From positions 17,495 to 81,494 of IMG/VR virus record IMGVR_UViG_3300022928_001147: 64,000 bases of DNA. One strand, 5' to 3'. The stretch comes from a virus. The position numbers were made by a program, and so were the translations under genes. Of this stretch, positions 2,222-32,407 are shown piece after piece (within the stretch, counting starts at the first letter, position 1; the number at the start of each line of letters is the position of its first letter). The notes below the pieces were generated by a model. That model searched no databases, was not told the DNA's origin, and saw only the letters and a list, made by a program, of their open reading frames with translations.

Positions 2222-2250
2222 ATATTAACACAGTTAACAATATTTGTCAA
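2222..2250 (-). promoter_or_regulatory. sigma70-type promoter for tctC
   Basis: TTGACA-17 nt-TAATAT with TG extension; the -35 contains the TGA stop of the upstream gene. Confidence 0.65.
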
Positions 2251-2960
2251 CCATGTTCGTCATCGTCTAGTACCCAATTGTGACCGTCTTGTGGATTTCC
2301 TTTAATAACAGGATAATTGTCCTTTGCTAACGGAACTTCAAACGGGGCAATTCGATCAAACACTTCTTGATCTGTTAAGTACGATGTCATGCAGATATGA
2401 TATCGATCATATCCGCTGCCGTTAATAGCAGTATGTGCAATACGAGTATCAATAAAATAGTTGTCACCTGTTAACGGTGTATGCAAACTGTGATTTACAT
2501 TATGTGCAGGAAACACCCACATATTCATTGTATTTGTAATAATAGGAAGATGGAACTTATAGTCAATGTCTCGATGTATTCGAAAACAATGTTTAGGTTT
2601 AAGTTTAAATATCCTTGTACGAATATACGGCACTGGAGATTCTTCTAACAGCTCTTCAAAGATTGTATTTTGAAACATGGGAGTTGTTTTTATAAAATCT
2701 GCTTCAATGCGAGGATTGTCAGTGCGATCTTTGTGTAAGCTCGGCGTTGGGCCGCACCCGCTGTGATATACATTCACATCTGGTTTATCAAAATCATCAG
2801 GATGCGCTTGTATAGCAAACTGATCTTGAAAGCCGATAGTAAACCATCCCGCTTCTTCAATTTGCGGAATCATAGCATCCATTGCTTCCTTTAAATGTTT
2901 AGGATTTTTTCCTGTACTAAATCGCTTTACATATTTTGTTATAGGTTCTTGCATTACCAT
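2247..2960 (-). CDS. Fe(II)/2-oxoglutarate oxygenase, aspartyl/asparaginyl beta-hydroxylase-like
   Basis: RTRIFKLKP...IHRD (HxD)...FHLPIITN...HTAING...RYH, the AspH-like cupin pattern. Confidence 0.7.
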   Translation of the reverse strand: MVMQEPITKYVKRFSTGKNPKHLKEAMDAMIPQIEEAGWFTIGFQDQFAIQAHPDDFDKPDVNVYHSGCGPTPSLHKDRTDNPRIEADFIKTTPMFQNTIFEELLEESPVPYIRTRIFKLKPKHCFRIHRDIDYKFHLPIITNTMNMWVFPAHNVNHSLHTPLTGDNYFIDTRIAHTAINGSGYDRYHICMTSYLTDQEVFDRIAPFEVPLAKDNYPVIKGNPQDGHNWVLDDDEHG

Positions 2961-3517
2961 ATATCCTTATTTGCACTTAGTTGAAATGCTGTTCTAACTC
3001 CTGTAACATTTTCAACGCCGTGTAGTATAAGTGTATTTAATGCTACCCACGTATTAGTAGGAAACTTTATGGTTTCAACTACGTCTAGATTACTAAAATC
3101 GTTTGCATGAACTTGACGACCTCTTACTAAATCTTTTCCATGTTCTTGGTACCATACTGTTTTAGCATCTTCGCCGCCTGGATCTAACAAGTACATTATA
3201 GCAATATCTCGTTTAATATCAGTGTGAGGTGCTAGGTACGGTCCACGGTCTCCGTCACAAAATCGAATACCACAATCAAATGCTTCAGGATGAATATTTT
3301 CATGGCACCAATTTGTAAAATCTTCATTAAGTGCTTGATAGTAATGAAACGTAAATCCTACTTGTTTTCCATCTTTAAGTACAACACGATCTTCGTATTT
3401 TTTGTGCAATCCGTGTAAGTCTACACCCCAAGATTTTTCTTGTATATGTTTGTTTGCTAGATCAAAAAATCTATCTGGTGGTGTTGGTAGGTCTTCTAAA
3501 ATTTTATAAATCCACAT
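2954..3517 (-). CDS. Putative Fe(II)/2OG-dependent oxygenase
   Basis: PHTD (HxD)...LHGVEN...R; start moved to ATG 3517, which overlaps the end of the upstream gene. Confidence 0.6.
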   Translation of the reverse strand: MWIYKILEDLPTPPDRFFDLANKHIQEKSWGVDLHGLHKKYEDRVVLKDGKQVGFTFHYYQALNEDFTNWCHENIHPEAFDCGIRFCDGDRGPYLAPHTDIKRDIAIMYLLDPGGEDAKTVWYQEHGKDLVRGRQVHANDFSNLDVVETIKFPTNTWVALNTLILHGVENVTGVRTAFQLSANKDIW

Positions 3518-4628
3518 TAATTTTCCTCTTGGGTATTTTGCTGTCTGCACTGCTTACACAACTATTTGTTATACAAGGCATTGGAGAATCAAATAGTTTA
3601 AACCCTGTTTCGATATTGCCAAGAGGAACATCATGACATGAATATGATCGCTTAACGCTGCCGTCCGGCTCTCGTATTATAATACCACTGTATCCAGCAT
3701 TACAACTCCAACCTTTAAAATTGTTAAAGTTGAACGCATTAAATCGTTCCGCTTGATCCATGTACCATTTTTCGCCTTTTGAGTCTTTTAACTCAACTTG
3801 CATATGCCACGGTACGCTAGCATCATTTTTTCCCATAATATCTTTAGGTACTTGAAATGTTGGCTTAGGCCTATCTGCCCACTTACGCTTACTTTCTGTG
3901 TACGCACGTTGTGGCATACCGTTATGCAAACGTTTTAAATTTTCTTCCGTGTAACCATCAACCACGCGGCTCGCAGTAGGATCTGATTGCGGCTTAAGAG
4001 TAACATTGATTCCTTGTTCGTGAAAGAACAATGCGTTTTCCCAGTCTCTTTCAAACCAGTCCGGAACCATAACCATATTAATCGTAACTTGTACATCGTG
4101 CTCCTGACAGAAGATTAACTTGTCTGCAAAGTCTTGCATCTTCTCACGTGTATTTAAATGTTCTGTATGTAGACTTGCTGTAATGCTTGCACGATGGAAT
4201 GGTTTAACTGCTTCTACGTATTCTTCAAACCAACTCATTGATCGACTACAGTTTGATGTCATATGAACACTTGTATAGTTAGTATTGTCAACATCATCAG
4301 CAAGATGTTTTAGTATGTCCAAGTATCCAGGATGGAAAGTAGGCTCTCCTCCCGACAAGGAGAAGTGGAAAGAGTTGAAGCCGTTGTCTCTGGCTTGACG
4401 TTTGATTTCATCCACTGTACGCAAGCAGAGCTCGGTAGGACGGTGGTCTTTACGATCGCTTCTCGCATATGGCCAACAGTAGGAGCAACGGTAGTTGCAG
4501 AATCTTCCAAGTAACCACGATACAGTAAAAAGATCGCGATAAAGCAGAGTACGTTGACCCACACTGACAATGTCATCAAAGGGAATCTTAGTAAAATCGT
4601 AGTTGCTCCATTTTAAATCTTCATTCAT
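3504..4628 (-). CDS. Radical SAM protein, class B (C-terminal SPASM/twitch-like domain)
   Basis: CNYRCSYC, SGGEPT; C-terminal WSCNAG...DGS...SC...PCITNSC. Confidence 0.9.
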   Translation of the reverse strand: MNEDLKWSNYDFTKIPFDDIVSVGQRTLLYRDLFTVSWLLGRFCNYRCSYCWPYARSDRKDHRPTELCLRTVDEIKRQARDNGFNSFHFSLSGGEPTFHPGYLDILKHLADDVDNTNYTSVHMTSNCSRSMSWFEEYVEAVKPFHRASITASLHTEHLNTREKMQDFADKLIFCQEHDVQVTINMVMVPDWFERDWENALFFHEQGINVTLKPQSDPTASRVVDGYTEENLKRLHNGMPQRAYTESKRKWADRPKPTFQVPKDIMGKNDASVPWHMQVELKDSKGEKWYMDQAERFNAFNFNNFKGWSCNAGYSGIIIREPDGSVKRSYSCHDVPLGNIETGFKLFDSPMPCITNSCVSSADSKIPKRKINVDL

Positions 4629-4633
4629 AACTT

Positions 4634-4662
4634 ATAATAACATCATTATTATTAATTGTCAA
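4634..4662 (-). promoter_or_regulatory. sigma70-type promoter, probably leaderless, for the rSAM gene starting at 4628
   Basis: TTGACA-17 nt-TATTAT with TG extension; ATG lies 5 nt after the -10; no SD sequence. Confidence 0.65.
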
Positions 4663-5324
4663 ATAATAATTCTTCGTTGTCCTATTTTGTCATAAGTGTT
4701 GCTAGTGTTAATTCCATCAGTGTGTAATGTGTGTGTGTCGTACAAGGGATATCCTATTCCTAACATTAACAGCAAATTGTATCTATTTAATTTATGTGCC
4801 TTAAGTACCTTTTTAGGAAATGCGTCTTCCCAAAAACACTTACAAAAACCAGACTTTAATCCTAAACTATTTGCAGCTATTGCTATTGCCCCTGCAGATA
4901 ATCCAACTTCTAAGGATGTTAGCACTCTATACGAACCTTTAGATAATGCGTTTCCATGATCTCTATAAAATTTAGTACTACTATCTCTATCTTCTTCTCT
5001 CATAAAAAATAAAAATAGTATATTAGAGTTAGTTTGAGGATTTTGCATTCTTCCTTGTTTTATAGCACTGCTGAGACTCTTAGATATTTGAGAAAGTTCA
5101 TCGTCACTATTCCGTGCTGCGTTAGCAAATTGTTGTATAACATCTCTATCTTTAATACATACAATATCAAAACTATTCAAGTTTTGTTTGGTAGGTGTAT
5201 TATAACCAACATCTATGAGCCAATTAATAGTTTCAAGATCTATTTCTTTAGAGAGGTCCCAATTGCGTTGACAACGCTGACTACTATTTACAGCAGATAA
5301 AAACTCATCCTGATCTAAACTCAT
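4659..5324 (-). CDS. Nitroreductase-family flavoprotein
   Basis: SQRCQRNW, TPTKQN, AIAANSLGLKSGFC, LMLGIGYP; RBS AGGAG. Confidence 0.75.
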   Translation of the reverse strand: MSLDQDEFLSAVNSSQRCQRNWDLSKEIDLETINWLIDVGYNTPTKQNLNSFDIVCIKDRDVIQQFANAARNSDDELSQISKSLSSAIKQGRMQNPQTNSNILFLFFMREEDRDSSTKFYRDHGNALSKGSYRVLTSLEVGLSAGAIAIAANSLGLKSGFCKCFWEDAFPKKVLKAHKLNRYNLLLMLGIGYPLYDTHTLHTDGINTSNTYDKIGQRRIII

Positions 5325-5334: not shown

Positions 5335-6099
5335 CTATTGTGTTTTACAATTAACCATTTTTAAATATATTTCCGCAAATGTAGCATGTGCAGATTTTCC
5401 GGGATGTAATAAGTCCCTTGCAGTTGCGTCGTTTACTACTGTTTTTTCTGTCTCTGTATCATTAAGATCTAGAACATACAATGGAATATTATTACTCTGA
5501 CATAAAAATTTAATAGCATCTAAATTTCTAAGTTTATTTATATATGCTTCTTCTCTAGTAAAGAATCCAGATATAATATCTCTATGAGAAAAAACGCTGC
5601 TATTAGCTTTAACTTGAGACCATTGTTTACAGTAATAAAGTTCTCGCCTATCACTAAGGGGAAGCAAAAGGAACACTCTTTTTATATTTGCAAAGTTAAT
5701 AAATCCTTTTAATACTCTATAACAAGTTTCGGGGCCGGCGCCTGGCACACCTAAGTTATAAAGTTTATAATCATTTAATTTTTTATTAACCAATGTCGGC
5801 CATATATCTTTATAATTAACTTCTTCGCCTAATGTATAACTACAGCCTATGTATGCATTACATTCATCACCTTTAACAAAATCTTTATTTGATCTATATC
5901 CAAAGTTATTAAGTTTGTATGTTATACTATCTTCTTGCCAGTCTTTCATCTCGTTAGGTCTAGAAAGTTTGTTTTCATTAAACAGCTCGCGCTGATTTTT
6001 AAATAAAAAGTTAACTTCTTTTTTATAAAATACAGAAGAAACTATTGTATTTTGTCTTAATAAATCGTAGTCAAATGTATGTTCGTTAGGTAATATCAT
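5335..6099 (-). CDS. SGNH/GDSL-like hydrolase or acyltransferase
   Basis: GCSYTLG (block I), NLGVPGAG (block II), DLLHPG (DxxH). Confidence 0.7.
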   Translation of the reverse strand: MILPNEHTFDYDLLRQNTIVSSVFYKKEVNFLFKNQRELFNENKLSRPNEMKDWQEDSITYKLNNFGYRSNKDFVKGDECNAYIGCSYTLGEEVNYKDIWPTLVNKKLNDYKLYNLGVPGAGPETCYRVLKGFINFANIKRVFLLLPLSDRRELYYCKQWSQVKANSSVFSHRDIISGFFTREEAYINKLRNLDAIKFLCQSNNIPLYVLDLNDTETEKTVVNDATARDLLHPGKSAHATFAEIYLKMVNCKTQ

Positions 6100-7160
6100 T
6101 TTATTTCCTGCAAATGCGGTATTAGTTCTTTTAATTGTTGATTTCGCATATTATCTAATTCATAAGTGTATTTGTAGAATTTATCTAATAGCAAAGGATC
6201 AAATTTAGTTTGTATTATCTTTGACAATCTACTATTTTTCATAATTTCTAGTACATAGTCTTTGGCAGATTCTGATAATATATTTATTGCTAGAAAACTA
6301 GGTCGGACAACTAAATTTGTACTCCAGGTGCAGTTGTGTTCATTAGCAAACTCTGTTAATTTATAATACTGGTGTATGTTATAATTTTGCAAAGTAGTGT
6401 GTAATACAATTTTATTACTAATATGTTTTTTAAAAATGTTTAAATTTTCTACAAAGGTTTCCCAACTAGAGTTTCTTATGTAAGTGTATACTTCTTCAAT
6501 TCCGTCAAAACTTAGCACAAGATTAAATTCTTTAAATTTACTAACTTTATTGATCCAACGGGGTATGCGAGTGCCGTTACTTACTACTTCTATTGAAATT
6601 TTATTAGCGTTGGGTAATTCAAGTAATTGCTCTATAAAATATTCTGTGCGAGGCATTATAAAAGGCTCGCCTCCTTTTAATTCTATAAAAAATTCTTTAT
6701 TGCTAGCACGAATAAAAGATAATATTTTTTCTATATCTTCTTTTGATAATTCATGCACTGCGGTTCTTGCTGTTTGAAAATGTATACCTTTAGCTGCTAG
6801 TATCTTTGCTTCAGGTATCCAGCTGGTACTGTTTCCAGGTGTACACATTCTACAATTTAGATTGCAGTGATTACCGCAGTTAATATCTAACCTAAATTGA
6901 TTAGAAGTTATCCATTCGTCATAACTGTCTCGGCGACTAGTACCGTTAGTTTCTTCGTGTGTTTTGCATAAAGAACAATTAGAATGCCACTGTGTTTGCA
7001 TAGTAGTTATAATATCTTTATGTTGTGCTAACTCAAACACATCTTCTAGTCTTTCTAGCTCGCTCACATGAATTAGTTTGTCTGCACTTTGACAACAGAT
7101 ACGAACAAACCCTTGCGGGTCTATTTGTATATTTTGTGTAAGTGCTTTACATGATATCAT
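6096..7160 (-). CDS. Radical SAM protein, class A (N-terminal twitch/SPASM-like domain)
   Basis: N-terminal C...RICC...CSLC; core CNLNCRMC, KGGEP, SNG. Confidence 0.9.
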   Translation of the reverse strand: MISCKALTQNIQIDPQGFVRICCQSADKLIHVSELERLEDVFELAQHKDIITTMQTQWHSNCSLCKTHEETNGTSRRDSYDEWITSNQFRLDINCGNHCNLNCRMCTPGNSTSWIPEAKILAAKGIHFQTARTAVHELSKEDIEKILSFIRASNKEFFIELKGGEPFIMPRTEYFIEQLLELPNANKISIEVVSNGTRIPRWINKVSKFKEFNLVLSFDGIEEVYTYIRNSSWETFVENLNIFKKHISNKIVLHTTLQNYNIHQYYKLTEFANEHNCTWSTNLVVRPSFLAINILSESAKDYVLEIMKNSRLSKIIQTKFDPLLLDKFYKYTYELDNMRNQQLKELIPHLQEIK

Positions 7161-8323
7161 TGTTTAAATATAGGAAATGTTGCAATTAAATTTTCATTGC
7201 GTGATTTGTCTAATGCAGTGTGATGCTGCCAAAACTTATCCCATAACTCCTTAGTGTATTCATCTTGTTTTACAAATGCTAGTATACTACTGATGCAACT
7301 GTAGTCATACTTATCTAACTTATTAACAACTTTATTTTTTAAATCTGTTGGAAGTACACTTGCACTTAGATGTTCTGGATAGCGAACAAATGTAATTTCA
7401 GTTTCAATGCCCATACTATCAAACCATTCTAATGCTTCAGGTATGTAATATACATTAGTGTTTTGTACTGTAATTTTAGCAACAATACGAATGTTAGGAT
7501 ATTTTTTAAGTTGTAATATATTGTCTTGTATTTGCTGCCATTTACTACCGCAGCGAATATAATCGTTTTGTTCCTTGTTCCCGTCAAGACTTACTGCAAG
7601 TTTTACTGCTTTAAATTTACTCCAGTAATCTAATACGTTATATTTTTTAAATTTTAACATGCTTAAATTAGTAGCATAACTTAAAAATATTTCGTCTGCT
7701 CTGTCAATTACTTTATCTAGAACCATATAATGTTTTTCGTCAAATAACGGCTCGCCACCTGCGAAATTTAATTCTAACACTTCAGTTAGATCAAGCCCTT
7801 CTATAAATGCATCTTCATAGCCTAAATAAGGTTTTTTAGTAAGACCGAGATTGACTATATGTTCTTGCCAGTCTATAGGTTGCAAGTCACTAATCTTGTC
7901 CCATTCTTTAAACCAACTGGTACTATCATGAACGCTGCACATACGGCAAGCAAAGTTGCACAAGTTGCTTAGTTTAAGTTCAAGCCATTTTACTCCTGTT
8001 GACAAACTGCCGTCTGGCGACATTATAGAAACTGCATGCTCATATTCGTCGAGCATTTTCTTACTTCGTTTGTTAAGATATTTTTGTCTTAAACTATCTA
8101 CCCCTGCATCTTCGTCTTTATAACATACTTCACAATGCTTATTTCTGATGCCGTTAACCATATCGAGCCGTACTTGTTTTATAGTATCACAATTCCAAGC
8201 CTCTGTTAATGACATAGAGTTAGTATTTCCGATTCTAGGAAGACTACGACAACACAGTTTTATACTGCCGTCAGTCTTAGTACTTTGATGTACAAACGGT
8301 GCAGGACAGATAGTTTTACTCAT
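7157..8323 (-). CDS. Radical SAM protein, class A
   Basis: CPAPF...KLCC...CEVC; core CNFACRMC, AGGEPL, TN. Confidence 0.9.
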   Translation of the reverse strand: MSKTICPAPFVHQSTKTDGSIKLCCRSLPRIGNTNSMSLTEAWNCDTIKQVRLDMVNGIRNKHCEVCYKDEDAGVDSLRQKYLNKRSKKMLDEYEHAVSIMSPDGSLSTGVKWLELKLSNLCNFACRMCSVHDSTSWFKEWDKISDLQPIDWQEHIVNLGLTKKPYLGYEDAFIEGLDLTEVLELNFAGGEPLFDEKHYMVLDKVIDRADEIFLSYATNLSMLKFKKYNVLDYWSKFKAVKLAVSLDGNKEQNDYIRCGSKWQQIQDNILQLKKYPNIRIVAKITVQNTNVYYIPEALEWFDSMGIETEITFVRYPEHLSASVLPTDLKNKVVNKLDKYDYSCISSILAFVKQDEYTKELWDKFWQHHTALDKSRNENLIATFPIFKQ

Positions 8324-8916
8324 GTGTTCTCCATATACAATTGCTTGTTTTTAGGACGCAAAGGATCATTCTCGTTCCATCTATCACTTACTCGTAATTT
8401 AAATGTTATTCCATAAGTTTTAGCTAATGCTTGTGCTGCTTCTATTTGATGTTCATTAAAACTAAAAGGTATAAATTGCCAAACAATATCTTTGCCTAAT
8501 ATTGCACCTAATTTCATTGCTGCCATACTGCTATCAAAGTCTATATTTTTTCTATACATATGTGCAGTATTTTTCAGGCCATCTACGCCAAATACAACTT
8601 TACCATGTGTATAACTATTATAAAATTCTTTCCACCAGTCTAATTTTTTACCACTTCCATTAGTTGCCATAATAAAAAATACATTTTGTGTGTCAAAGAA
8701 TTTTATTATATCAATCAACTTTGGATGATATATCGGATCTCCTAGATTGCCGCTTAACAATACTTTTTTATAATTACCAGACTGAATAACTGTTTTGATA
8801 ACATCAACAGGTAAATCAGTTATTTGTATATTGCCTTTAAGATCTGTGCGCGGACACTTAGGACATTCTAACAAACATCTACGTGTTAATTCAAAATGCA
8901 CTTTTTCACTATACAT
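8320..8916 (-). CDS. Radical SAM protein, class C, core only (no C-terminal SPASM)
   Basis: CLLECPKCPR, GNLGDPIYHP, TNG, DGL, WQFIPF.FNEHQ; start moved to ATG 8916, which overlaps the upstream stop. Confidence 0.85.
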   Translation of the reverse strand: MYSEKVHFELTRRCLLECPKCPRTDLKGNIQITDLPVDVIKTVIQSGNYKKVLLSGNLGDPIYHPKLIDIIKFFDTQNVFFIMATNGSGKKLDWWKEFYNSYTHGKVVFGVDGLKNTAHMYRKNIDFDSSMAAMKLGAILGKDIVWQFIPFSFNEHQIEAAQALAKTYGITFKLRVSDRWNENDPLRPKNKQLYMENT

Positions 8917-9205
8917 CTTCGACAACCTTTGTTAACGGATTCTTTAAATTATCTGCAATTGCTCCGCAATGTGTTTTACAAGTAGGTCCAGCAGATTCAG
9001 GATTAGCTATTAAATTGTCTATCCAGTTTTTTAAATGTACATTAACAATTTCATCATAGGGCGTTTTTGTTATATCAAATTTATCACATTCAAACTGTTG
9101 ATATTCGTTACGCTCAGGCCTATCACTGAGAAAACAACAAGGACGCACATGCCCTGTTGCAGTAATAAACTGATCTTTCCCTCTTGCACATTTAGGATAA
9201 ATCAT
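8909..9205 (-). CDS. Stand-alone SPASM/twitch-like Fe-S domain protein
   Basis: PKC...FITATGHVRPCCF...CKTHCG aligns with the C-termini of 21582..22619 and 22619..23683. Confidence 0.75.
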   Translation of the reverse strand: MIYPKCARGKDQFITATGHVRPCCFLSDRPERNEYQQFECDKFDITKTPYDEIVNVHLKNWIDNLIANPESAGPTCKTHCGAIADNLKNPLTKVVEDV

Positions 9206-9828
9206 TGTTTCTCCAATATAAAAAACAAATTTTCAGGATATTCAGTAAGTTTGAAATTATAATTTTTAGCAAATTCTTTCACAGCAATTTCAAGTTCGGG
9301 CCAATCCTTGTTTTTATAGTCGTCGCCACATATAACTTTCGTATCTTTAAAATATTCTAAAACTTTTTTTGTGTGTTCGTAGGTGTGTTCCGAATCGAGA
9401 TATATAGCATCATATGTCGAACAATACTTTTTATAAATGTACTGGTGTGTAGACATCGACGTAACATTAGATAACAATTTATATTTAGGATGATGCTCCA
9501 TTACAAAATTCCAGACTTCTTTATGAGACATATTTTTTAACATATTAACTATGTTCGACCAGATATCCAAATTTTTGCCAAATTTGGGCATTCTATCAGA
9601 ACGAACAAAATCAGGAATTTCTGATGCATCAACATTAAAGGAATCTAACACGTCGTATGTGGTATCGTCAGGCAAAACGTCTAACCACGCCCAAGTACTC
9701 CTTCCAAAAAGCACACCAATTTCTAAAAACTTTGCATTTTTAGGTAGTAGTTTTGCAACTTCTGCGTATCGCTGATGCTGATATATACTTGTAAATCCAG
9801 GGACTTGTCTTGCTTGAATTATTTCCAT
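9202..9828 (-). CDS. Class I SAM-dependent methyltransferase (Methyltransf_24-like), copy 2
   Basis: FLEIGVLFGRST, YDAIYLDSEHTY, ICGDDY. Confidence 0.8.
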   Translation of the reverse strand: MEIIQARQVPGFTSIYQHQRYAEVAKLLPKNAKFLEIGVLFGRSTWAWLDVLPDDTTYDVLDSFNVDASEIPDFVRSDRMPKFGKNLDIWSNIVNMLKNMSHKEVWNFVMEHHPKYKLLSNVTSMSTHQYIYKKYCSTYDAIYLDSEHTYEHTKKVLEYFKDTKVICGDDYKNKDWPELEIAVKEFAKNYNFKLTEYPENLFFILEKQ

Positions 9829-13692: not shown

Positions 13693-13696
13693 AAAT

Positions 13697-23683: not shown

Positions 23684-23713
23684 TCAGAACCTTCGTATTA
23701 AATAATATGCGCA

Positions 23714-23727: not shown

Positions 23728-23753
23728 GAAAACAAGTAGGATTTCAATTCATT

Positions 23754-24074: not shown

Positions 24075-25275
24075 AGTTAACAGTTGGGACGAGTTTCAAC
24101 CTTTACAAGAATTATTAGTAGGTAGCGTATACGACAGTTCATTCTTTGACGAGGTTAAAAATGTTAGAGCACGAGATGCTCTTAAAAAAATTATCGACGA
24201 CACGCAAGAAGATATTGATAACTTTATCGAAACTATGCACAGTCATAACATAAAAACTTATCAAGCAAGTCCTAAAGAATTGGGATATAAAGATAGTATT
24301 ATGGACTATGTTAACGAAGATGGAGAATTAGGGTACAAAAGAAACGTCGGTGATAGCAGTGAAGAAAAAGATGGATTTTGGAAAACTGGTGTGACACCTA
24401 GTTTAATTCCAAATCCTCCATTGCAGCCACGCGATGATGCAATCGTAATGGGCAATAAGTTAGTAGTAACAGATCCGTATACCTTTGCTACTAAAAAACT
24501 TATACCTAAATATATTGAGTGGTTTGGTGAAGAAAGTTTAGACTTGTCAATTGCAAATCAACAATATTCGTTTAAGCGCAGTGATAAAAATATGCGCAAT
24601 CTATTGTTAAGAAATAATATAGAGCCTACAGCAGAAAATATTTTAAAATACCAAAGCGAGCAAGACTGCCAATTAGGGTCCTTTTGCAGTCCAAACTTAA
24701 CAAGAATAGGCAAAACTTGTTTAGTTGATACTTGGCAGGTACCAGGAGTCATTGACGAATTTTTATCAATCGAACATCCAGAATTTAATTATAAACCTAT
24801 TTCAATTGGTGGCCATAATGATGCAGTGTTCAGTGTTATTAAACCTGGATTAGTTGTAGCAACACAGTATCTCGAACCGTACAAAGACATTTTTAAAGGC
24901 TGGGATATTATTTGGTTTGACGATCCGAGATGGGACCATGTTAAAAATTGGCTAAGACTTAAACACAAGAATCAAGGAAAATGGTGGGTGCCAGGAGAGG
25001 AAAGCAACGACGAGTTTACGCACTTCGTCGAAAGTTTCTTGCCTAATTGGACAGGCATGGTCGAAGAAACAATTTTCGATGTTAACTGTCTTGTAGTAGA
25101 CGATAAGCATGTTGTAGTAAACAGCGACAACCCTTACTTGTTAGAAAATTTACGCAAGCACAATATGGAACCTATTGTTTGTCCATTACGTCATAGATTT
25201 TTCTGGGACGGTGGATGGCACTGCTTAACCCTTGACATTAAACGTAAAGGTGGGCAAACTGACTATGGAGTCTGA
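24067..25275 (+). CDS. Amidinotransferase (glycine/inosamine-phosphate amidinotransferase-like, pentein fold)
   Basis: VNSWDEFQPLQELLVG, PRD, GHND, C-terminal GGWHCLT with the catalytic Cys. Confidence 0.85.
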   Translation: MSKVNSWDEFQPLQELLVGSVYDSSFFDEVKNVRARDALKKIIDDTQEDIDNFIETMHSHNIKTYQASPKELGYKDSIMDYVNEDGELGYKRNVGDSSEEKDGFWKTGVTPSLIPNPPLQPRDDAIVMGNKLVVTDPYTFATKKLIPKYIEWFGEESLDLSIANQQYSFKRSDKNMRNLLLRNNIEPTAENILKYQSEQDCQLGSFCSPNLTRIGKTCLVDTWQVPGVIDEFLSIEHPEFNYKPISIGGHNDAVFSVIKPGLVVATQYLEPYKDIFKGWDIIWFDDPRWDHVKNWLRLKHKNQGKWWVPGEESNDEFTHFVESFLPNWTGMVEETIFDVNCLVVDDKHVVVNSDNPYLLENLRKHNMEPIVCPLRHRFFWDGGWHCLTLDIKRKGGQTDYGV

Positions 25276-25750
25276 TATTTCATCATGGATTATAGATCGA
25301 CTGTCTGTTTCTCTTCCTACTTTTAATAACATGCCTGCTTGCCCATTTGCAAAGCAGGCATTATTAAGAAATCGAGTTAAAATTATTCAGCTTGATAATA
25401 AACATGATTTTGAAGCGCAGTTAGATAAATTAACAACTATGTGGCCTGAAGATATCGAAGTAGTAGTATTAGGCACGGCTCCAAATAACATTTCTTCAGA
25501 AGAATTAACAGAACTCACTGAAACAGCAAATTCTACATTTCTTAAACAAAGAGGGTATCTTGCATTAGAAGATCATCCTCAAGAATTAGAATATGTTGAA
25601 GACTTTTGTGTAAATGAAGGAAACTGGGCTCTTATATTATTGCAAGCAAGCTCTAAGATAACCGAAGCTCGAGAAGTGTTATCGAGTCGCGGATATTACA
25701 AGAATTGGGACGACGACTATTACAAGCAAGTTGTTTTAGAGAGGGCCTAA
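25265..25750 (+). CDS. Hypothetical protein, DUF1415-like
   Basis: PACPFAK and EDHP motifs; ATG 25265 overlaps the end of the amidinotransferase. Confidence 0.5.
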   Translation: MESDISSWIIDRLSVSLPTFNNMPACPFAKQALLRNRVKIIQLDNKHDFEAQLDKLTTMWPEDIEVVVLGTAPNNISSEELTELTETANSTFLKQRGYLALEDHPQELEYVEDFCVNEGNWALILLQASSKITEAREVLSSRGYYKNWDDDYYKQVVLERA

Positions 25751-26161
25751 TTCTTCATACCCTTGTATCATTGTCTTATAGTGTGCAACCTCTCCTAAGT
25801 ACAAGTATTCAACTCCCTTACTCTTGTAATATGCACATTCATGTTCTATACTTTTAATACCTAAATATAAATTCGGATTATGATAGGTCCAAGCAAATTG
25901 ATAGTCTTCTACATGTTTATCATTGTATATTCCAATCATGTTAAATGCTACTAATTCATTATTATCGTAATAGGCAATAATATCATTATTAAAATATTCT
26001 TTGTCGAAAATAGGCATAACACTCTCAAAGTTTTTATATTGACAGTATTTTTTATAGATGTTATTAAGCTGAACAACATCAATTTCATCTTTGCTTAAAA
26101 GTTTTGCGTTAGGCAAAAGGCTATAAGATGTTTCTTTTAAATTTATTCTACAGTATTTCAT
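25736..26161 (-). CDS. Arginyl/aminoacyl-tRNA-protein transferase C-terminal-like (GNAT fold)
   Basis: YYDNNELVAF...LGIKSIEHEC..YK..G..YLYLG...YK resembles the ATE_C/Bpt motif. Confidence 0.6.
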   Translation of the reverse strand: MKYCRINLKETSYSLLPNAKLLSKDEIDVVQLNNIYKKYCQYKNFESVMPIFDKEYFNNDIIAYYDNNELVAFNMIGIYNDKHVEDYQFAWTYHNPNLYLGIKSIEHECAYYKSKGVEYLYLGEVAHYKTMIQGYEELGPL

Positions 26162-27057
26162 TTATTTGTTTTGTAAATTTGAACATCTGTTCCACAAACA
26201 CAAGATGTTTTAGTGCAAATTTCAGGCGCAGTAGGTAATTTATAAGTCGAGTATATATTTCCATATGGTTTTACAATTTTACAAGTTGCTCCGTAAATGT
26301 TTCCATTTGGTTCAATATTTAAATTGTCTAATCCCATATTACATTTCCATCCAAAATAATTATTTGAACTGTTTATTAAATGTTCGCTTGTTGTTGTTTT
26401 TTCTCCATCGACAAGGAAATCGTATCTAATAATAGATCTAATTTTAGATCGCGAAAACTTGATTTTAGCAAACTCTAACATTTCCGTAGTATAAGTAGGC
26501 AATATGCCAGTTCCATTGTGCCAGTCAGCTATCAGTTTTATTCTAACATTTATAAGCAATTTAGATTCTAATAATCTATTATAAAACTTTTTAATTTTTT
26601 CAAATTGACTCGGTGGCATCATTAGTACACATGAAATTCTGTACCGTGTATGGAGTTCTTCAAATACTTCTATAAAATGATCTTCGCTTGCAGTTTCTGT
26701 ATGAAAACTAAATCCTAATTCGTCAATAGGAGCATTAAATTTTTTCCAATAGTTTAAAGTACGACTACCGTTAGTAGTAAAAATAATTGCAGTAGGTTGC
26801 TTACTTGAGTTTACAAGATCATCACAAAACTCATGCAGTTTAGGCCATAGTGTAGGTTCGCCGCCCATAATATCAAATATTAACGGACGATATTTTCTAA
26901 ATTCATTAGACAAGTTTAAAAGAGAAGTATAATCTTCTGTCCATCTATACTTTCCGTTGTAATGGTACTCTGTGCAATAACTACAAGAATAATTACAAAC
27001 TGTAGTGCAAGTGTAAGTAATACGCTTCCATTGAGGAATTATCTTAAGTTCATTCAT
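26158..27057 (-). CDS. Radical SAM protein, class B
   Basis: CNYSCSYC, MGGEPT, TTNGSR; C-terminal WKCNMG...TC...CTKTSCVC. Confidence 0.9.
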   Translation of the reverse strand: MNELKIIPQWKRITYTCTTVCNYSCSYCTEYHYNGKYRWTEDYTSLLNLSNEFRKYRPLIFDIMGGEPTLWPKLHEFCDDLVNSSKQPTAIIFTTNGSRTLNYWKKFNAPIDELGFSFHTETASEDHFIEVFEELHTRYRISCVLMMPPSQFEKIKKFYNRLLESKLLINVRIKLIADWHNGTGILPTYTTEMLEFAKIKFSRSKIRSIIRYDFLVDGEKTTTSEHLINSSNNYFGWKCNMGLDNLNIEPNGNIYGATCKIVKPYGNIYSTYKLPTAPEICTKTSCVCGTDVQIYKTNK

Positions 27058-27274
27058 CGAGTATTAACTTTATGTCTTTTCCTGGTCCAGTTTTGCTAGG
27101 CAAGTCACCGTATTGATCTACATACCAGCTAATAACAGCTTTGTACCAGTTTTGACTATTATGGTGTGCTTGTTTATTAAACTGCCAAATATTATTGTTT
27201 GTAGCTTGCATTGTACTTAGCGCTCTTGCACTTTCCTTTTGCAATTCTCGAAGTGTTAAATTACTTGTATCCAA
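27050..27274 (-). CDS. Small hypothetical protein (74 aa)
   Basis: Overlaps both neighbours in the operon; no recognisable motif. Confidence 0.7.
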   Translation of the reverse strand: MDTSNLTLRELQKESARALSTMQATNNNIWQFNKQAHHNSQNWYKAVISWYVDQYGDLPSKTGPGKDIKLILDE

Positions 27275-29870
27275 TTAACATAAACCTCTTATATTTTTCA
27301 AGTTGTAATTCTCCAGAATATAACAAGTTAGTCATAGGTGCTATACTGTTAAATTCTTCAATGTCTTTAACACAGTTTACGTGTTCTTCTATTTCATAAT
27401 AATTATTACTTTGTAGTATAACTAGCTTACCAGACGGTATCATATTATACCATTCTACAAATTTTTCAATATGTTCGCAGCTTGTGTTGATAATAGTATC
27501 TGGGCTATCTTTTAATTCTTCAATACTACCATTACTTTTAACTGTATTATAGATATGTCTGCTGTAATCGATATCCATAATATCTTTAGTCTGTGCTTTA
27601 AATTTCCAGTTATCTAATACTAGCAGTTTATTAAATGTTTCTGCAATAGTCCAGACAGTAGGATCAATGTCAAAACTGCGAACAGAGTTGAATTTAATAT
27701 TGTTTTCTACAAACATTGGGATAATTGTTGCATACCAACCGGCGCAAAGATATATAAGACCTAAGTCTAAATCTAAGTCATTTAATGTATCAGTTAACCA
27801 TTTTTTACTTAACAGTTGACCTCTACTTAAACAGTCTTTATCAAAGTTAGGAACTGTTTCGTACAACGTTTTTAATGGTTTTACAAATAAACTGTTAGTA
27901 TGGTTATCTAAAACTTTCCACAATGAATTTATATCATTGTTAAGAAGTTTAAACTCAGACGACACTTCCGGTAATAATCTTGCAAGACTATATAAATTTT
28001 TCTCAAGTACTGCTTTACGTAAGTCGTCATCTGCATTTACTAATCTAAAAATGCTATGTAAATTTTCCTCAAGTACTGCTTTTCTAAGTTCTTCATTATT
28101 TGCTAATTTAAAAATACTAGACAAATCTTTATCATTATACATACGGCGTACATTTGAAATGTCACCTTCGTATAATAATTCAAATCTATCTAATAAGTCT
28201 ATTATGTCGTTGTTAGCAGTAGTTGATTCTATGGGAGTTATGTTAGTTTCGTTATCAAGTAGCTGCGATGATTGTTTAAATTGCTCTTCTAGCCATTCAA
28301 AGTCATTTATTTTTTTAAGAGCTTCAATGTCACCTTGACTTTCTCTTCCGTAAGCAGTTCCTGCTGTTGCTCCCTTAATAGCCCATTCTCCGTAAGGACG
28401 CTCTTTTCCAACTGTTTGCCACACATGTAATCTTTTTTCTGTTTCTTCATTCTTTTGTCTGTCAATTACTTTACTGCTTAATTTAGCACATTCTCTAAAT
28501 GCACTACGCCAAGTACTAAACTCGTCTGTATTAAATGCTGTGATGTTGCTTACAACTTTAATAGGTTTAAAATGACGACTAATACTTGTAGTCATATCAG
28601 GCTTACTTATATCCATGTTAATAGTTAGTGTCCTTGGAAGAAGTTTAATTCCGCCGTAGCCGTATTCTAAATCATTAATCGGATTTTTACTACGCCAAAC
28701 TTTCACATATTCTTTTTCATCTACAGGACTTACGTAATCAAAATTAAAGTCGTCTGTTATTTGTGCATCACCGTCTACAATCCAGATCATTTCTGTAGTA
28801 CATATCTTTGCAGCTTCAATATGTGCCTGATGAATTCCCTTTACTCCGTCGACACGTTTTGCTCGAGGAAATTTTTCTTTTAAGGCATTATAATTTTCCT
28901 CTGCGTTGGACTCGTTATATGTTATCATTACAATATCATATTCTTTTGTAGCTTCAATTTCGGACTTTAAAAAGTCTTGAACGACCCTGACTGGAGGAAT
29001 ATACATACTCTTAAAGAATTTACTATGACTAGGAAGATACGGATCAATTGGAATATCTATACCTAATTCGTTATTAAGCAATGTGCCTAAACGAGAAATT
29101 TCTTGCGGAAGCATTTCTTCAGTAATTTTAGAATACTTATCTTCCCACATCTTATTAAGATATTCAAAGTCACGTACATTGACAAAGTCCCAATCAGTAC
29201 AGTTAGTTAAATAACAACCTTCACGAGCACCATAAATTGCCCATAGACCGTTCTCAACATCTGTTCCAATTGTTTGCCAAATTTTAAGTCGTTCAAAATT
29301 TTTCTTATGCACACGTTTCGTAAATTCTTGTCCTGAAAGTTTTTCGCCCTCGTAAAGACTCATCTTTACACCTTCGCGAAATCCTGCTCTCCAAGCCTGC
29401 CACGGTGTTGCATTATTATACACAGAACTATATGTTTTGTTAACTTGTAAATATTGTAAATCCCAACAAAAGTCAACTTGTGATTGAGGGTTTGATGATT
29501 CTGCATTTTCATGTGTTTTCATGTTTAAAACAATGTGCTTCGGCCAACATTTAATTCCGCCGTTGCCGTATGTTAATCCATTTACAACATTATATCCGCT
29601 CCAGCTAATTACACAATTTTCTACATCAACATCGTCTCTAAAATGCAACTCTTCATTAATAAAGTTTTGGTGTACAATATTGTCACCGTCTATAGTAATA
29701 AATCGATCAGTTTCACTTAGATTTGCACAAGCCTTATGTGCAGCGTCACTACCTTCTACACCATGTACACGTTTTGCCCAGGGCACTTTAGTAAGCAAGT
29801 CAGCATAATTTTTTTCAGCGTTTGGTTCATCGTAACTCAAATATATAATATCGTAATCAATAATTTTCAT
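27261..29870 (-). CDS. Multidomain protein: two tandem GT-A-like glycosyltransferase domains plus a C-terminal methyltransferase-like domain
   Basis: Duplicated YD...SY.E.NAE.NY...AKRV.GV.G...AH...DGD...GGIK..P...WR..FRE; C-terminal LCAGWY, SFDIDP, INTSCEH. Confidence 0.7.
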   Translation of the reverse strand: MKIIDYDIIYLSYDEPNAEKNYADLLTKVPWAKRVHGVEGSDAAHKACANLSETDRFITIDGDNIVHQNFINEELHFRDDVDVENCVISWSGYNVVNGLTYGNGGIKCWPKHIVLNMKTHENAESSNPQSQVDFCWDLQYLQVNKTYSSVYNNATPWQAWRAGFREGVKMSLYEGEKLSGQEFTKRVHKKNFERLKIWQTIGTDVENGLWAIYGAREGCYLTNCTDWDFVNVRDFEYLNKMWEDKYSKITEEMLPQEISRLGTLLNNELGIDIPIDPYLPSHSKFFKSMYIPPVRVVQDFLKSEIEATKEYDIVMITYNESNAEENYNALKEKFPRAKRVDGVKGIHQAHIEAAKICTTEMIWIVDGDAQITDDFNFDYVSPVDEKEYVKVWRSKNPINDLEYGYGGIKLLPRTLTINMDISKPDMTTSISRHFKPIKVVSNITAFNTDEFSTWRSAFRECAKLSSKVIDRQKNEETEKRLHVWQTVGKERPYGEWAIKGATAGTAYGRESQGDIEALKKINDFEWLEEQFKQSSQLLDNETNITPIESTTANNDIIDLLDRFELLYEGDISNVRRMYNDKDLSSIFKLANNEELRKAVLEENLHSIFRLVNADDDLRKAVLEKNLYSLARLLPEVSSEFKLLNNDINSLWKVLDNHTNSLFVKPLKTLYETVPNFDKDCLSRGQLLSKKWLTDTLNDLDLDLGLIYLCAGWYATIIPMFVENNIKFNSVRSFDIDPTVWTIAETFNKLLVLDNWKFKAQTKDIMDIDYSRHIYNTVKSNGSIEELKDSPDTIINTSCEHIEKFVEWYNMIPSGKLVILQSNNYYEIEEHVNCVKDIEEFNSIAPMTNLLYSGELQLEKYKRFMLIGYK
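28002..28082. repeat. 66-bp-period coding tandem repeat (22-aa LRKAVLE.NL.S unit)
   Basis: ctcaagtactgcttt at 28002 and 28068. Confidence 0.8.
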
Positions 29871-29873
29871 GCA

Positions 29874-30428
29874 TTACTCCTGTACATTATGTATGTGTTT
29901 AACATGATGAGAGTTACATAAAAGGCTTACAGACATTTTACTGACTTCTTTATTATAACTTTTTAATTTAAGTTCGTTGTGTAATACAACTAATTTTAAA
30001 TCAACACTTAACGTATCTAGCAATATAAATCTATTAGTAGGATCAACTACGTAATAAGTTTTTATAGTGTTATTGCTTTGTGCAAATAAAGAACACAACT
30101 CAGAGTCCATAGTATTAGTAATTGTCCAGCTACCATTAGATAAATCTTGATTTATAATTATTGCGTTTTCAGCAGTAGATTGTTTAGCAATAATTCCTTT
30201 AGGTTGAGTTATGTCTAAAGATAAATCTAAATCTCTTGGAACAATTTGTTTTTTACCTTTTATTTTTATATTATCAATTACAATGTAATCAAAAAATTGT
30301 TTTGTTAAGTTAGAAAATTCTTCATAAGTTTTTAAATCAACTTCAAAATAATTGGGGCCGAACGAATTATCAATTATATTAGTAACCGAAAGGACGCTTC
30401 CACTATCATCGTAATACATGTAAAACAT
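29874..30428 (-). CDS. Hypothetical protein
   Basis: In-operon ORF; ATG 30428 overlaps the upstream stop. Confidence 0.65.
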   Translation of the reverse strand: MFYMYYDDSGSVLSVTNIIDNSFGPNYFEVDLKTYEEFSNLTKQFFDYIVIDNIKIKGKKQIVPRDLDLSLDITQPKGIIAKQSTAENAIIINQDLSNGSWTITNTMDSELCSLFAQSNNTIKTYYVVDPTNRFILLDTLSVDLKLVVLHNELKLKSYNKEVSKMSVSLLCNSHHVKHIHNVQE

Positions 30429-31222
30429 TAAACACGCTCCTCTAACCATTTTAACATTTCTAAAGTTAAAAACTCATCTTCTACATAATGTAATACACCT
30501 GATTGTTTAAAACCGTTAATGTAAATATTATCTCCAAAATCAACTGATAGATCATTAGTCCATTTCGAAGGCACTGGTTCTATATTTTGTACATGCGGCT
30601 TCATGTGTGTAAATATTAAATTACTAGTATAATCAATATCTAAAATCTTTAATGCAATAGCTGCACTAACATCAACACTATTCCACGCTTGCATGCTTAA
30701 AGGAGTATACGTTTTATAAAATACTTCCCAATTATTCATTATTACTTCTAGTAAATTAAAAAATGCTGTTGTATTGCTAGACTTTTTAAATTGATACATG
30801 CCAGTATATATGTTTGGTAAATTATTATCGTCAAAAGTCTTTCGATAGTATCTACTTGTTACTGTAGTATTTCGGTATGTATTAACTGTTGTTGTAAATG
30901 CAAGTTCATTTGTAGAAAAATTAATAGGATCTAATACTAACATATCTGCATCAAATACTGTAGTATTACTATACGGAGTTAATTGAGATAACTTCCACCT
31001 GTTATCAATTTTCCAATTTTTATTTTCCGCTAAATCAACACCAGGTATAGATATAACTTGATCAAACACATTTTTATATTTTGACGATATTTTATCGTTG
31101 GTTATAATACTAATGTTTGTGTTAGGAGAATGTGAAAGAACACTAAGTGCTAATGCATACGCCTGTTCTACATAATTTGTAGTATCATTGTTTTGTGCAA
31201 GTACGCATATTCCATTACTCAT
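30428..31222 (-). CDS. GT-A fold glycosyltransferase (GT8-like)
   Basis: YVEQAYALALS, TPYSNTTVFDADML (DxD), FTHMK; start moved to ATG 31222. Confidence 0.7.
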   Translation of the reverse strand: MSNGICVLAQNNDTTNYVEQAYALALSVLSHSPNTNISIITNDKISSKYKNVFDQVISIPGVDLAENKNWKIDNRWKLSQLTPYSNTTVFDADMLVLDPINFSTNELAFTTTVNTYRNTTVTSRYYRKTFDDNNLPNIYTGMYQFKKSSNTTAFFNLLEVIMNNWEVFYKTYTPLSMQAWNSVDVSAAIALKILDIDYTSNLIFTHMKPHVQNIEPVPSKWTNDLSVDFGDNIYINGFKQSGVLHYVEDEFLTLEMLKWLEERV

Positions 31223-32063
31223 GTGTAAACTCCTTATCAATAAAAGAGTTTAAACTAAATTTATTCATTACATGCACTGTTGCATCAGTAAGTTTTACTG
31301 GAATGTAATCATACGACTTATGTGCTAAGAGTTTAATAACATTATTATCGACGTTTACTAATACATCTTGATCAGTTGAAACCCACATATCACTAGGTAA
31401 TTGTTTAGGCCACTCAGTGCTATTTTCAAATCCTCGCATCATATGTACTGCAATACTAAATGCAAAATCATTTCTAAATTTAGTCTCAGTTATATCATAC
31501 ACTGTTCTATAATAATTATAGTTATCTTTAATATGACTCACTAAATCAAATACTGTTTTTGCTGCGTTACTTTTTGTAAAATATAATATAGTAGCCCAGT
31601 ACATAGAAATAGATCTATTACTCACTCTATCAAAACTAGGTTCAACTCCTTGATTAATTAGATTATAATGATTAGCAATCATAAAATCTTCAGCAGTATC
31701 AAAGCATGATAATAGTTTGTTATTTGAGATTAATAAATCCGTGTCGATTACAATTGTTTTATCAAAAGCACTTAACGCATATGCACTATTGCGCGAAGAA
31801 TTTTTCCATTCTAACCGTTTACTAGAATATAGTCCATCGTTAAATGTTTTGGTTGCATTATTAGAAGGAGCAGGAACATACGTTACAATATCAATATAAT
31901 TTTTATAAAAAGGATATGCAGATTCAATGTAATCAACTGCATCTGTAATTAATTGTACTGGAAGGTTTAAATATTGTTTTACACGCTTTGCACAATATAT
32001 TGCTTGTTTTACATAATCAATATTTTTATTATTAAACGCAAAGAGTACTACGCCGTTGGTCAT
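31215..32063 (-). CDS. GT-A fold glycosyltransferase (GT8-like)
   Basis: DYVKQA, SAFDKTIVIDTDLL (DxD), FRND, VHVMNK; paralog of the downstream gene. Confidence 0.7.
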   Translation of the reverse strand: MTNGVVLFAFNNKNIDYVKQAIYCAKRVKQYLNLPVQLITDAVDYIESAYPFYKNYIDIVTYVPAPSNNATKTFNDGLYSSKRLEWKNSSRNSAYALSAFDKTIVIDTDLLISNNKLLSCFDTAEDFMIANHYNLINQGVEPSFDRVSNRSISMYWATILYFTKSNAAKTVFDLVSHIKDNYNYYRTVYDITETKFRNDFAFSIAVHMMRGFENSTEWPKQLPSDMWVSTDQDVLVNVDNNVIKLLAHKSYDYIPVKLTDATVHVMNKFSLNSFIDKEFTHE

Positions 32064-32407
32064 AAGTCAACTAATCCTTGAACAGACTTATTCTTTCTAA
32101 TTGTTTCATAATCAGTGGCGTACTTGTGCGATGCAGATGTGTATACACTTAGTAATTCTTTTACAAATTCATCAATGTTGCTTATAACAAAAGGAATGTC
32201 ATTATCGTCTAATACTACTAGACCTTCATCTTGTATCTCTGATAACAAATGACAAAAGTTAATTAATTCTCGAGTTACTGTAAACTTATGTCCATGAGTA
32301 TAATGTACAAGATTCTCCTTATACTGTGCAAGAAAAATACGTTTTTGATTGTTTTGTGTTTCTAAAAAGTTAGAAAACTCTAATGCTTTAGCTAATCGTT
32401 GGTCCAT
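32060..32407 (-). CDS. Hypothetical protein, first gene of the glycosyltransferase operon
   Basis: Strong RBS GAGGAG and consensus promoter upstream. Confidence 0.75.
   Translation of the reverse strand: MDQRLAKALEFSNFLETQNNQKRIFLAQYKENLVHYTHGHKFTVTRELINFCHLLSEIQDEGLVVLDDNDIPFVISNIDEFVKELLSVYTSASHKYATDYETIRKNKSVQGLVDL

Follow-up and report, generated by a model that had tools for sequence, protein, structure and literature searches.

A 64,000-nucleotide stretch of viral DNA (the window, bases 17495 to 81494 of an 81.5-kb IMG/VR viral contig, record IMGVR_UViG_3300022928_001147, here called G000) carries an island in which 14 radical S-adenosylmethionine (rSAM) genes lie together with glycosyltransferase (GT) and tailoring genes, directly behind the tail-fiber genes of a large myovirus. 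The feature is real and conserved, and it looks expressed. Our tentative reading is that the island is the enlarged, hypervariable enzyme part of a fiber cassette, in which soluble cytoplasmic enzymes would assemble and radically edit a glycan whose acceptor is most likely a virion protein. Sugar chemistry overall is probable; the virion-protein acceptor, taken on its own, we regard as a possibility rather than a likelihood. The glycan part draws on four GT-A-fold domains, glycan-type bacterial neighborhoods, and accessory enzymes of the sugar and small-amine type, while no hallmark of peptide maturation or of known DNA hypermodification was found. The virion part draws on the conserved position and orientation behind the fibers, the solubility of the proteins, late-promoter-like boxes, and RNA-library coverage. 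A sequence-only reading of the same DNA had proposed a tailored glycan on virion proteins; its glycan half is now independently supported, while the four points just named bear on its virion half, none of them showing the acceptor. Sugar substrate, chemistry, and acceptor are what we infer; what was observed comprises the identities and folds of the genes, their division into core and accessory sets, the conserved synteny, and the occurrence of shared genes in Bdellovibrionota and the Ralstonia phage RsoM2USA.

Between positions 3504 and 27057, 14 open reading frames (ORFs) contain a CxxxCxxC motif, and every one matches Pfam Radical_SAM. They fall into the three classes distinguished by the sequence-only reading (eight class A, three class B, and three class C genes, one of the last truncated; coordinates are in Table 1, and genes are named here by position). 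In all eight class A proteins, a four-Cys motif at the N terminus precedes the CxxxCxxC motif. The Pfam SPASM model (positions 1 to 67) aligns at residues ~6 to 80, and Radical_SAM only from about residue 115. Twitch residues C24, C64, and C67 are invariant in the alignment, with conservation of at least 90% for C6 and C25. The predicted Fe-S-binding twitch domain of class A lies at the N terminus. Pairwise BLAST between the class A N terminus and the class C C terminus was not significant; the case for homology between these Cys domains comes from the Pfam SPASM model. In class C, the CxxxCxxC motif starts at residue 18. Class B (CNYxCSYC) weakly resembles MoaA, viperin, and STM4011, and the ortholog alignment of 3504-4628 has a mean column identity of 71%.

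Class A belongs to NCBIfam family NF033640 (N_Twi_rSAM, twitch domain-containing radical SAM protein; curated cutoff, 170 bits). Five genes were scanned; 15833 and 18377 scored 315 and 232.1 bits, and scores for 6096, 7157, and 11597 are given in Table 1. The remaining three (14533, 17110, and 19506) were placed in the family by full-length class A alignment and by their position within the family tree. Clustered at 50% identity, the family (E ≤ 1e-30) comprises at least 8,700 clusters, and a literature search found no paper on it and no characterized member. NF033640 is a family name only; here, eight deeply diverged paralogs, mutually only 21 to 31% identical, occupy one phage island. In a FastTree phylogeny, whose long branches make deep nodes unreliable, the eight are scattered across the tree, each with bacterial and phage partners. 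This scatter and the low identity indicate that the paralog set is old and not a recent phage expansion. Many family members of about 800 amino acids (aa) consist of two complete N-twitch rSAM units in tandem (P0101 to P0132 of the representative library), and a few members of 1100 to 1466 aa carry extra, unassigned domains. The extra domains of two such fused members, P0113 and P0207, gave no PDB hit, and the sole lead in the atlas (0.84) was to viral proteins bearing Asp_Arg_Hydrox.

All three classes are far from characterized enzymes, so their chemistry is not readable from homology. The best PDB match of an AlphaFold2 (AF2) model of class A protein 7157-8323 (pLDDT 94) was BlsE (Z 13.6, root mean square deviation 3.4 over 206 residues), with anSME (12.6) and viperin (12.4) close by; among sugar-acting rSAMs, DesII and AprD4 were also listed, and identities were 16 to 19%. 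BlsE, a sugar-nucleoside rSAM, is effectively tied with anSME, viperin, EpeE, and SkfB, and the substrate is therefore not readable from the match. BlsE, BtrN, DesII, and AprD4 share the core fold of the SPASM/twitch clade with class A, and a carbohydrate substrate would be an inferred parallel; their auxiliary-cluster domain is C terminal, whereas that of the island's class A is N terminal. Foldseek ranked CteB, SuiB, and SkfB highest for the same model. The solved structures nearest to the class B profile were anSME (1e-5) and viperin (2e-3), and the profile of class C protein 22619 reached only NifB/MoaA in the PDB (E 7e-4).

SPASM/twitch rSAMs are known above all for modifying peptides and proteins, and both the Foldseek ranking and the anSME match of class B would suit enzymes that cross-link, epimerize, or oxidize virion proteins or a small precursor peptide, with the GTs in a secondary role. 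We consider this very unlikely. Neither Pfam nor NCBIfam gave an RRE/PqqD-like leader-recognition hit in any island protein, and the N termini are otherwise occupied, by the Cys-rich twitch in class A and by a CxxxCxxC motif near the start in class C. No conserved ORF of at least 60 aa (the sizes covered), shadow ORFs aside, was common to the loci that could represent a precursor peptide; neither a protease nor an exporter was seen; and the bacterial neighbors described below are glycan genes.

The island encodes four GT-A-fold domains and three methyltransferase units. The three GT genes named by the sequence-only reading were recovered as two GT8-like genes (30428 and 31215) and one gene (27261-29870) for an 869-aa protein with two GT-A domains and a methyltransferase domain. 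In the 869-aa protein, GT-A domain D1 occupies residues 1 to 300 and the paralogous D2, with a DGD motif, residues 310 to 535; a helical linker leads to D3 (residues ~672 to 869), a class I SAM methyltransferase domain (VIA Z 16 to NodS and other methyltransferases). D1 plus D2 match K4CP, a two-GT-A chondroitin polymerase, and LH3 (Foldseek E 3.9e-5), at Foldseek ranks 44 and 47 only; in the wide VIA search, matches to the methyltransferase domain took up the list. Searching PDB sequences by profile returned nothing for the GT-A domains or the methyltransferase domain. K4CP, like the 869-aa protein, has tandem GT-A domains in one chain, and the match spans 577 alignment columns; the likeness is weak at that E value and a TM of ~0.12 to 0.16. 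WbdD is the terminal methyltransferase of ABC-dependent O-antigen pathways. In WbdD-type systems, as in the 869-aa protein, a methyltransferase is tied to glycan building; the island differs in having neither a kinase domain nor an exporter. By analogy, a polymerase or capping role for the 869-aa protein may be proposed. The GT8 profile (32 sequences) matched glycogenin-1 and -2 (E 7.5e-5) at profile positions 5 to 101, aligning only the N-terminal half; D97 and D99 are invariant in the alignment, as expected of GT8 members.

Relatives of class A outside viruses lie overwhelmingly in Bdellovibrionota, according to a scan with one genome per prokaryote species. Core genes occur together there on chromosome-sized contigs (936 kb and 804 kb), with ortholog identities of ~60% for 11597, 45 to 48% for 14533, 43 to 49% for 22619, and 60 to 68% for 3504. 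The GT-A and methyltransferase units are separate genes in these bacteria (~40% identity), and one locus has the amidinotransferase. To describe bacterial context, 146 ORFs were sampled within 2.5 kb of N-twitch rSAM genes in cellular genomes. The sample held GT2 (5 ORFs), B12-rSAM (5), GT2_3 (4), GT1 (3), DegT sugar aminotransferase (3), CMP-sugar-type cytidylyltransferase (2), ABC-2 exporter permease (2), GDSL, and one NDP-hexose 2,3-dehydratase; GT2 and ABC ATPase families were each found at nine bacterial loci. No peptide-maturation family was among the most-matched families of these 146 ORFs.

An IMG/VR scan found at least 246 stretches encoding a relative of 11597-13006, and gene recurrence was counted in the best 80 of these (relatives 83 to 90% identical), within 10 kb either side of the relative. 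Four further types recur in 62 to 80 of the 80 loci and form the core together with the 11597 type: the GT-A/GT-A/methyltransferase protein (77 loci), the 22619-type class C, the 14533-type class A, and the 3504-type class B. Accessory genes are far patchier, with the PP-loop ATPase at 38 loci, the 32060 protein at 20, the nitroreductase at 14, the SGNH-like gene at 2, and the amidinotransferase at 1; none of the 80 has either Methyltransf_24 gene, the DUF6614 gene, or the ATE_C-like gene. The number of full-length rSAM genes per 21 kb ranges from 5 to 12 across loci (median, 9), and phage orthologs of 14533-15840 are 44 to 54% identical. Strong variation in gene content at 83 to 90% core identity is the pattern expected of surface-glycan loci. 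Island genes that are 76 to 87% identical also occur in two metagenome-assembled genomes, one labeled Gammaproteobacteria (L082, NZGL01000008.1) and one Neisseriaceae (L122, CANEUJ010000032.1); both are probably misbinned phage contigs.

Traces of this turnover are visible in the window itself. The truncated class C gene 8320-8925 has no SPASM part and is 33% identical to 22619; the orphan twitch piece preceding it looks like a recombination or deletion scar that joined two rSAM classes. Two short ORFs, 12999-13271 and 13697-13939, end in 21 to 22 residues that match class A C-terminal tails (50% and 71% identity, E ~1e-5), and they look like remnants of deleted rSAM genes that kept their stop-start junctions. 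Together, the truncated gene and the two tail-ending ORFs indicate ongoing gain and loss of rSAM genes.

A much smaller version of the cassette is found in RsoM2USA, a culturable Ralstonia jumbo phage (MG752970.1, 343.8 kb) that is alone among 50,697 phage records in having this type of GT-A. The GT-A and methyltransferase domain profiles match it at E 1.9e-83, 2.5e-80, and 1.7e-37. Behind the fiber-like ORF355, ORF354 to ORF347 encode, in order, a 32060-like protein, GT8, GT8, ORF351, GT-A, an N-twitch rSAM, GT-A, and a methyltransferase. The GT8 pair (ORF352/353) is in the same order as in the window, and the GT-A genes are 46% and 43% identical to those of the window. Upstream of the cassette, ORF356, ORF359, and ORF361 (>288 kDa) were detected in virions, and baseplate genes ORF362 to ORF364 follow; ORF347 to ORF354 are all annotated as hypothetical and are not discussed in that paper (PMC8504454). 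Gene order and the upstream baseplate and giant-protein neighbors therefore mirror the window. The difference lies in the enzymes: a single rSAM stands against fourteen, and class B genes, class C genes, and tailoring extras are missing from that place. RsoM2USA has a second, lone N-twitch rSAM, ORF202 (126846-128228, L159), about 90 kb from the fiber cassette, whose neighbors are all hypothetical.

Large-myovirus genes fill positions 32464 to 63876 of the window (fiber and collar-fiber genes, a 4949-aa ORF, baseplate wedge and hub, and virion proteins), in agreement with the fiber and baseplate neighbors seen in the sequence-only reading. The baseplate hub shares 38% identity with the hub of Pseudomonas phage PA5oct, followed by Atu_ph07; the listed hub hits include no T4-like phage, the closest being jumbo phages of the PA5oct, Atu_ph07, and RsoM2USA type. 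The order of the four fiber genes is the same in four other large phage contigs (G001 to G004) and in RsoM2USA, and G001 to G004 keep a one-strand order of baseplate wedge, giant protein, fibers, GT genes, and rSAM genes. The 4949-aa ORF (39608-54457) lies between the fiber genes and the baseplate wedge, at the same position as the virion protein ORF361 of RsoM2USA; its sole Pfam hit is an FG-GAP repeat.

The sequence-only reading had named a chimera of bacterial and phage DNA as a possible refutation, and this was rejected. A gene to the left of the island (G000:C1:8064-9347) has orthologs of 67 to 82% identity in G001 to G004, always on the far side of each contig's rSAM island, with fiber and baseplate genes on the near side, unchanged in order and strand. 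Conserved phage genes thus bracket the island in five related contigs, and GC content is even across the window (0.29 to 0.41). At the left edge of the island (207-2190), a DctP-family TRAP solute-binding gene (E 7e-45) converges on a TctC-family TTT receptor gene (E 8e-21); the two look like transporter-type auxiliary genes in a phage.

Salt-marsh data sets contain the contig as DNA and, in part, as RNA. Between 97 and 99% of its sampled words were present in salt-marsh metagenome DNA runs, and five salt-marsh metatranscriptome runs held 42 to 79% of the words of 11597-20693. RNA-library contigs from four of these runs span 20001-40000 (the island's right part plus the fiber genes) at ≥99% identity. 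Their depth was 13 to 29 over the fiber genes and 0 to 16 over the island, with identical highs and lows in all four runs, a pattern that fits transcription better than even DNA carryover. Coverage was little or none around 26.0 to 26.7 kb and 30.0 to 31.3 kb, which is no evidence of silence. The sequence TATAAATA occurs five times in the window, where shuffles predict 14 copies (five or more were present in 99 of 100 shuffles). Three of these copies sit shortly before gene starts on the minus strand (20699, 23720, and 33419). This depletion suggests that TATAAATA is a functional signal, a late promoter box of the T4 type.

A fiber-adjacent island of this kind has been read differently before. 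Pelagimyophages and cyanomyophages have a "host recognition cluster" next to their fibers, with GT8 and lipopolysaccharide (LPS) genes and rSAM cassettes, for which a change of the host O-chain was proposed (Zaragoza-Solas et al. 2020, PMC7029224). That cluster and the present island are alike in being large, hypervariable, and placed within the structural module, and both combine fiber genes, many GTs (GT8 being the commonest), an Asp/Asn beta-hydroxylase (weakly matched here), and varying rSAM cassettes. In its T4-like (Tevenvirinae-type) genomes, the cluster is situated between VrlC and the neck gene gp14. The present island differs in that host recognition cluster phages are T4-like and have far fewer rSAM genes, and their description defines no conserved rSAM/GT core (PMC7029224). 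In keeping with that proposal, the same kind of product could remodel a host envelope glycan (O-antigen, capsule, or another) from the cytoplasmic side of the membrane, which would keep competing phages from adsorbing or progeny from being lost on cell debris. GT8 enzymes are typical of LPS synthesis, and bacterial family members adjoin ABC-2 exporter and GT2 genes, which there indicate envelope polysaccharide. We nonetheless find host-surface remodeling unlikely: the island encodes no membrane protein, flippase, polyprenyl-phosphate transferase, or exporter, and no membrane segment was predicted in any island protein. The cassette also stays fixed behind the fibers although the cultured or likely hosts are very different (such as Ralstonia and marine bacteria), and its chemistry would have to fit each unrelated glycan.

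Abundant rSAM genes have been reported in another phage, the 183-kb marine T4-like genome TARA_ERS488813_N000010, with 12 rSAM genes and an A-type Fe-S carrier (Nishimura et al. 2017, PMC5332604). The 383-kb relative G001 likewise encodes two such carriers (G001:C1:16117-16425 and 324451-324753), which fits a heavy phage-borne demand for Fe-S clusters. In the TARA genome, the genes were discussed only as such a demand, with no pathway (PMC5332604). Within our literature search, the earlier statement that no characterized pathway has this composition holds; the family does have a name, NF033640, and rSAM-rich marine phages and fiber-adjacent GT/rSAM islands have been published.

Several tailoring enzymes invite comparison with small-molecule biosynthesis. 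The amidinotransferase has an invariant catalytic His-Cys pair (H385 and C386 in a three-sequence alignment) and is, by its similarity to the AGAT/StrB1/SxtG group, predicted to be of the small-amine or aminocyclitol type; tblastn matched only a marine virus associated with a single amplified genome and Synechococcus phage S-SCSM2R. The short pyridoxal phosphate (PLP) protein keeps an invariant SxSK lysine and a DxA motif. Twitch rSAMs, a StrB1/SxtG-type amidinotransferase, an aminotransferase, methyltransferases, and GTs are the mix found in clusters for aminoglycosides and nucleoside antibiotics, for which a conserved core with variable tailoring is also typical. The island might accordingly make a free aminoglycoside-, aminocyclitol-, or nucleoside-like molecule, e.g., against competitors or host defenses, which we judge to be quite unlikely. 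No exporter or self-resistance gene was found in the island; most relatives lack the amidinotransferase and the bulk of the tailoring genes, while the GT-A and GT8 pairs are constant; and the fixed place in the fiber cassette would be left unexplained.

A further use of such enzymes would be hypermodification of the phage DNA, with glycosylated or 7-deazaguanine-type bases that evade restriction. A PP-loop ATPase with a QueC-like Cys tail, rSAMs, an amidinotransferase, and GTs do occur in known DNA modification pathways. The sequence-only reading had called the ATPase QueC-like; it is a PP-loop ATPase, with no QueC model reached (NCBIfam matches only NAD synthase N termini, E 0.0017) and QueC found in its PDB profile only at E 0.08, via the Cys tail. 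Neither a ThyA-family (PF00303) nor a TGT/DpdA (PF01702) match was obtained in G001, which is rated complete; the window's own contig is a fragment, and divergent DpdA types could be missed. The core, moreover, is chromosomal in Bdellovibrionota, amid glycan-type neighborhoods. DNA hypermodification is therefore highly improbable.

Other tailoring genes proposed earlier fared unevenly. The amidinotransferase, the nitroreductase, and the two methyltransferases (a Methyltransf_24 pair) were confirmed, whereas the PLP enzyme is weakly supported. One of the two predicted Fe/2-oxoglutarate oxygenases corresponds to a weak cupin/hydroxylase-like match and one of the two SGNH proteins to a weak SGNH/GDSL-like match; the second of each was not found. 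The ATE-like transferase was matched weakly, below the cutoff. Pfam at E ≤ 5 gave nothing for 2954-3550, 5335-6099, 25232-25750, or 32464-33396, and Rfam found no RNA family in the window.

Table 1. Features of the rSAM island and its flank (positions in the window)
Feature	Position	Strand	Evidence
Cupin/Asp-Arg beta-hydroxylase-like (weak)	2247-2960	-	E 0.0026, below cutoff
Core class B rSAM	3504-4628	-	CNYRCSYC; C-terminal Cys309/331/352/357; Radical_SAM E 8e-16
Nitroreductase-family flavoenzyme	4659-5324	-	E 5e-9
Two accessory N-twitch (class A) rSAMs	6096-8323 (6096-7160, 7157-8323)	-	NF033640, 193.7 and 339 bits
Decayed pair: class C rSAM truncated to 201 aa (8320-8925) and 98-aa orphan N-twitch piece (8909-9205)	8320-9205	-	
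Two Methyltransf_24 paralogs	9202-10573 (9202-9828, 9941-10573)	-	Pfam; 57% mutual identity
Class B rSAM paralog	10564-11610	-	Radical_SAM, paralog comparison
Core N-twitch (class A) rSAM, subfamily 1	11597-13006	-	NF033640, 419.5 bits; clade support 100
SGNH/GDSL-like (weak)	13084-13707	-	E 7e-5, below Pfam cutoff
PP-loop ATPase (SGGxDS), four-Cys C-terminal motif	13791-14573	-	AsnB, ThiI, NadE; QueC tails
Core N-twitch (class A) rSAM, subfamily 2	14533-15840	-	Pfam SPASM residues 6-80, Radical_SAM 129-261
Four accessory N-twitch (class A) rSAMs	15833-20693 (15833-17113, 17110-18384, 18377-19519, 19506-20693)	-	Overlaps of 4-14 nt
Short PLP fold-type-I aminotransferase-like protein (accessory)	20706-21587	+	PDB aminotransferase, E 0.011
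Class C rSAM-SPASM paralog	21582-22619	-	Radical_SAM E 3.7e-13; SPASM residues 237-307
Core class C rSAM, C-terminal SPASM-like Cys cluster	22619-23683	-	Radical_SAM
DUF6614 protein	23754-24074	+	E 1e-17
Amidinotransferase (accessory)	24067-25275	+	E 1.8e-30 to 4e-28 vs SxtG, StrB1, HsvA, AGAT
ATE_C-like, aminoacyl-tRNA transferase fold (weak)	25736-26161	-	E 9e-5, below cutoff
Class B rSAM paralog	26158-27057	-	Radical_SAM, paralog comparison
869-aa core GT-A/GT-A/methyltransferase protein	27261-29870	-	AF2 pLDDT 88, Foldseek, VIA
191-aa protein between GT8 genes and GT-A fusion	29874-30449	-	RsoM2USA ORF351 holds same position
Two paralogous GT8 (glycogenin/LgtC-type, DxD)	30428-32063 (30428-31240, 31215-32063)	-	Profile vs PDB
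Conserved 115-aa protein opening cassette beside fiber gene	32060-32407	-	20 viral loci; RsoM2USA ORF354, 31% identity
Four tail-fiber/collar-fiber genes	32464-38966	-	PHROG tail-fiber hits and Pfam Collar; directly upstream of island, same orientation

If the island does build a glycan for the virion, its steps could run as follows. Both GT8 enzymes, together with GT-A domains D1 and D2 of the 869-aa protein, would add sugars from host nucleotide-sugars to the acceptor, most likely a virion protein of the fiber or baseplate periphery, and the fused methyltransferase domain would methylate, and possibly cap, the chain. The four core rSAMs (two N-twitch, one class B, and one class C) would make C-H-activating edits on the sugar or nucleotide-sugar, candidate reactions being epimerization, oxidation, deoxygenation, C-C bond formation, and ring contraction. 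Swappable extras would diversify the product among close phages; these are the six other N-twitch rSAMs, the other class B and C rSAMs, and tailoring enzymes such as the amidinotransferase, the PLP and PP-loop enzymes, the nitroreductase, the methyltransferases, and the SGNH-like protein.

Several points weigh against a virion glycan. The glycan, its acceptor, and the enzyme activities are predicted, and no nucleotide-sugar synthesis gene was recognized inside the island. The nearest solved rSAM structures include the peptide and protein modifiers CteB, SuiB, SkfB, and anSME, and the Bdellovibrionota core loci have neither GT8 genes nor phage fiber genes. Adjacency to the fibers is also explained by a host-surface change, as in the published host recognition cluster idea (PMC7029224), and the RNA-library contigs may derive from carried-over DNA.

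On a wider view, N-twitch rSAMs and GT-A transferases may form a widespread system in jumbo phages that radically edits glycans on receptor-binding fibers, a generalization we hold to be doubtful. Within it, Bdellovibrio-like predators possibly share the use, varying the sugar coat of attachment organelles; these would presumably be fiber-like adhesins, a link that is speculation on our part. If the generalization is correct, swappable rSAMs would set host range, stability, or evasion of receptor masking and of anti-phage lectins. Phage host range would then have a new level of determination, and carbohydrate radical chemistry a new class, drawn from a family that has thousands of members and no reaction assigned to it. 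As it stands, one product would account for about 30 kb of an aquatic phage's DNA and for 14 oxygen-sensitive Fe-S enzymes. If that product is a glycan on virion fibers, this would be the most elaborate phage virion glycosylation system known and would open a large carbohydrate branch of the rSAM enzymes; if the host surface is the target, phages would have a new way of excluding superinfection. Bench experiments are within reach in RsoM2USA, a culturable phage that carries the one-rSAM version.

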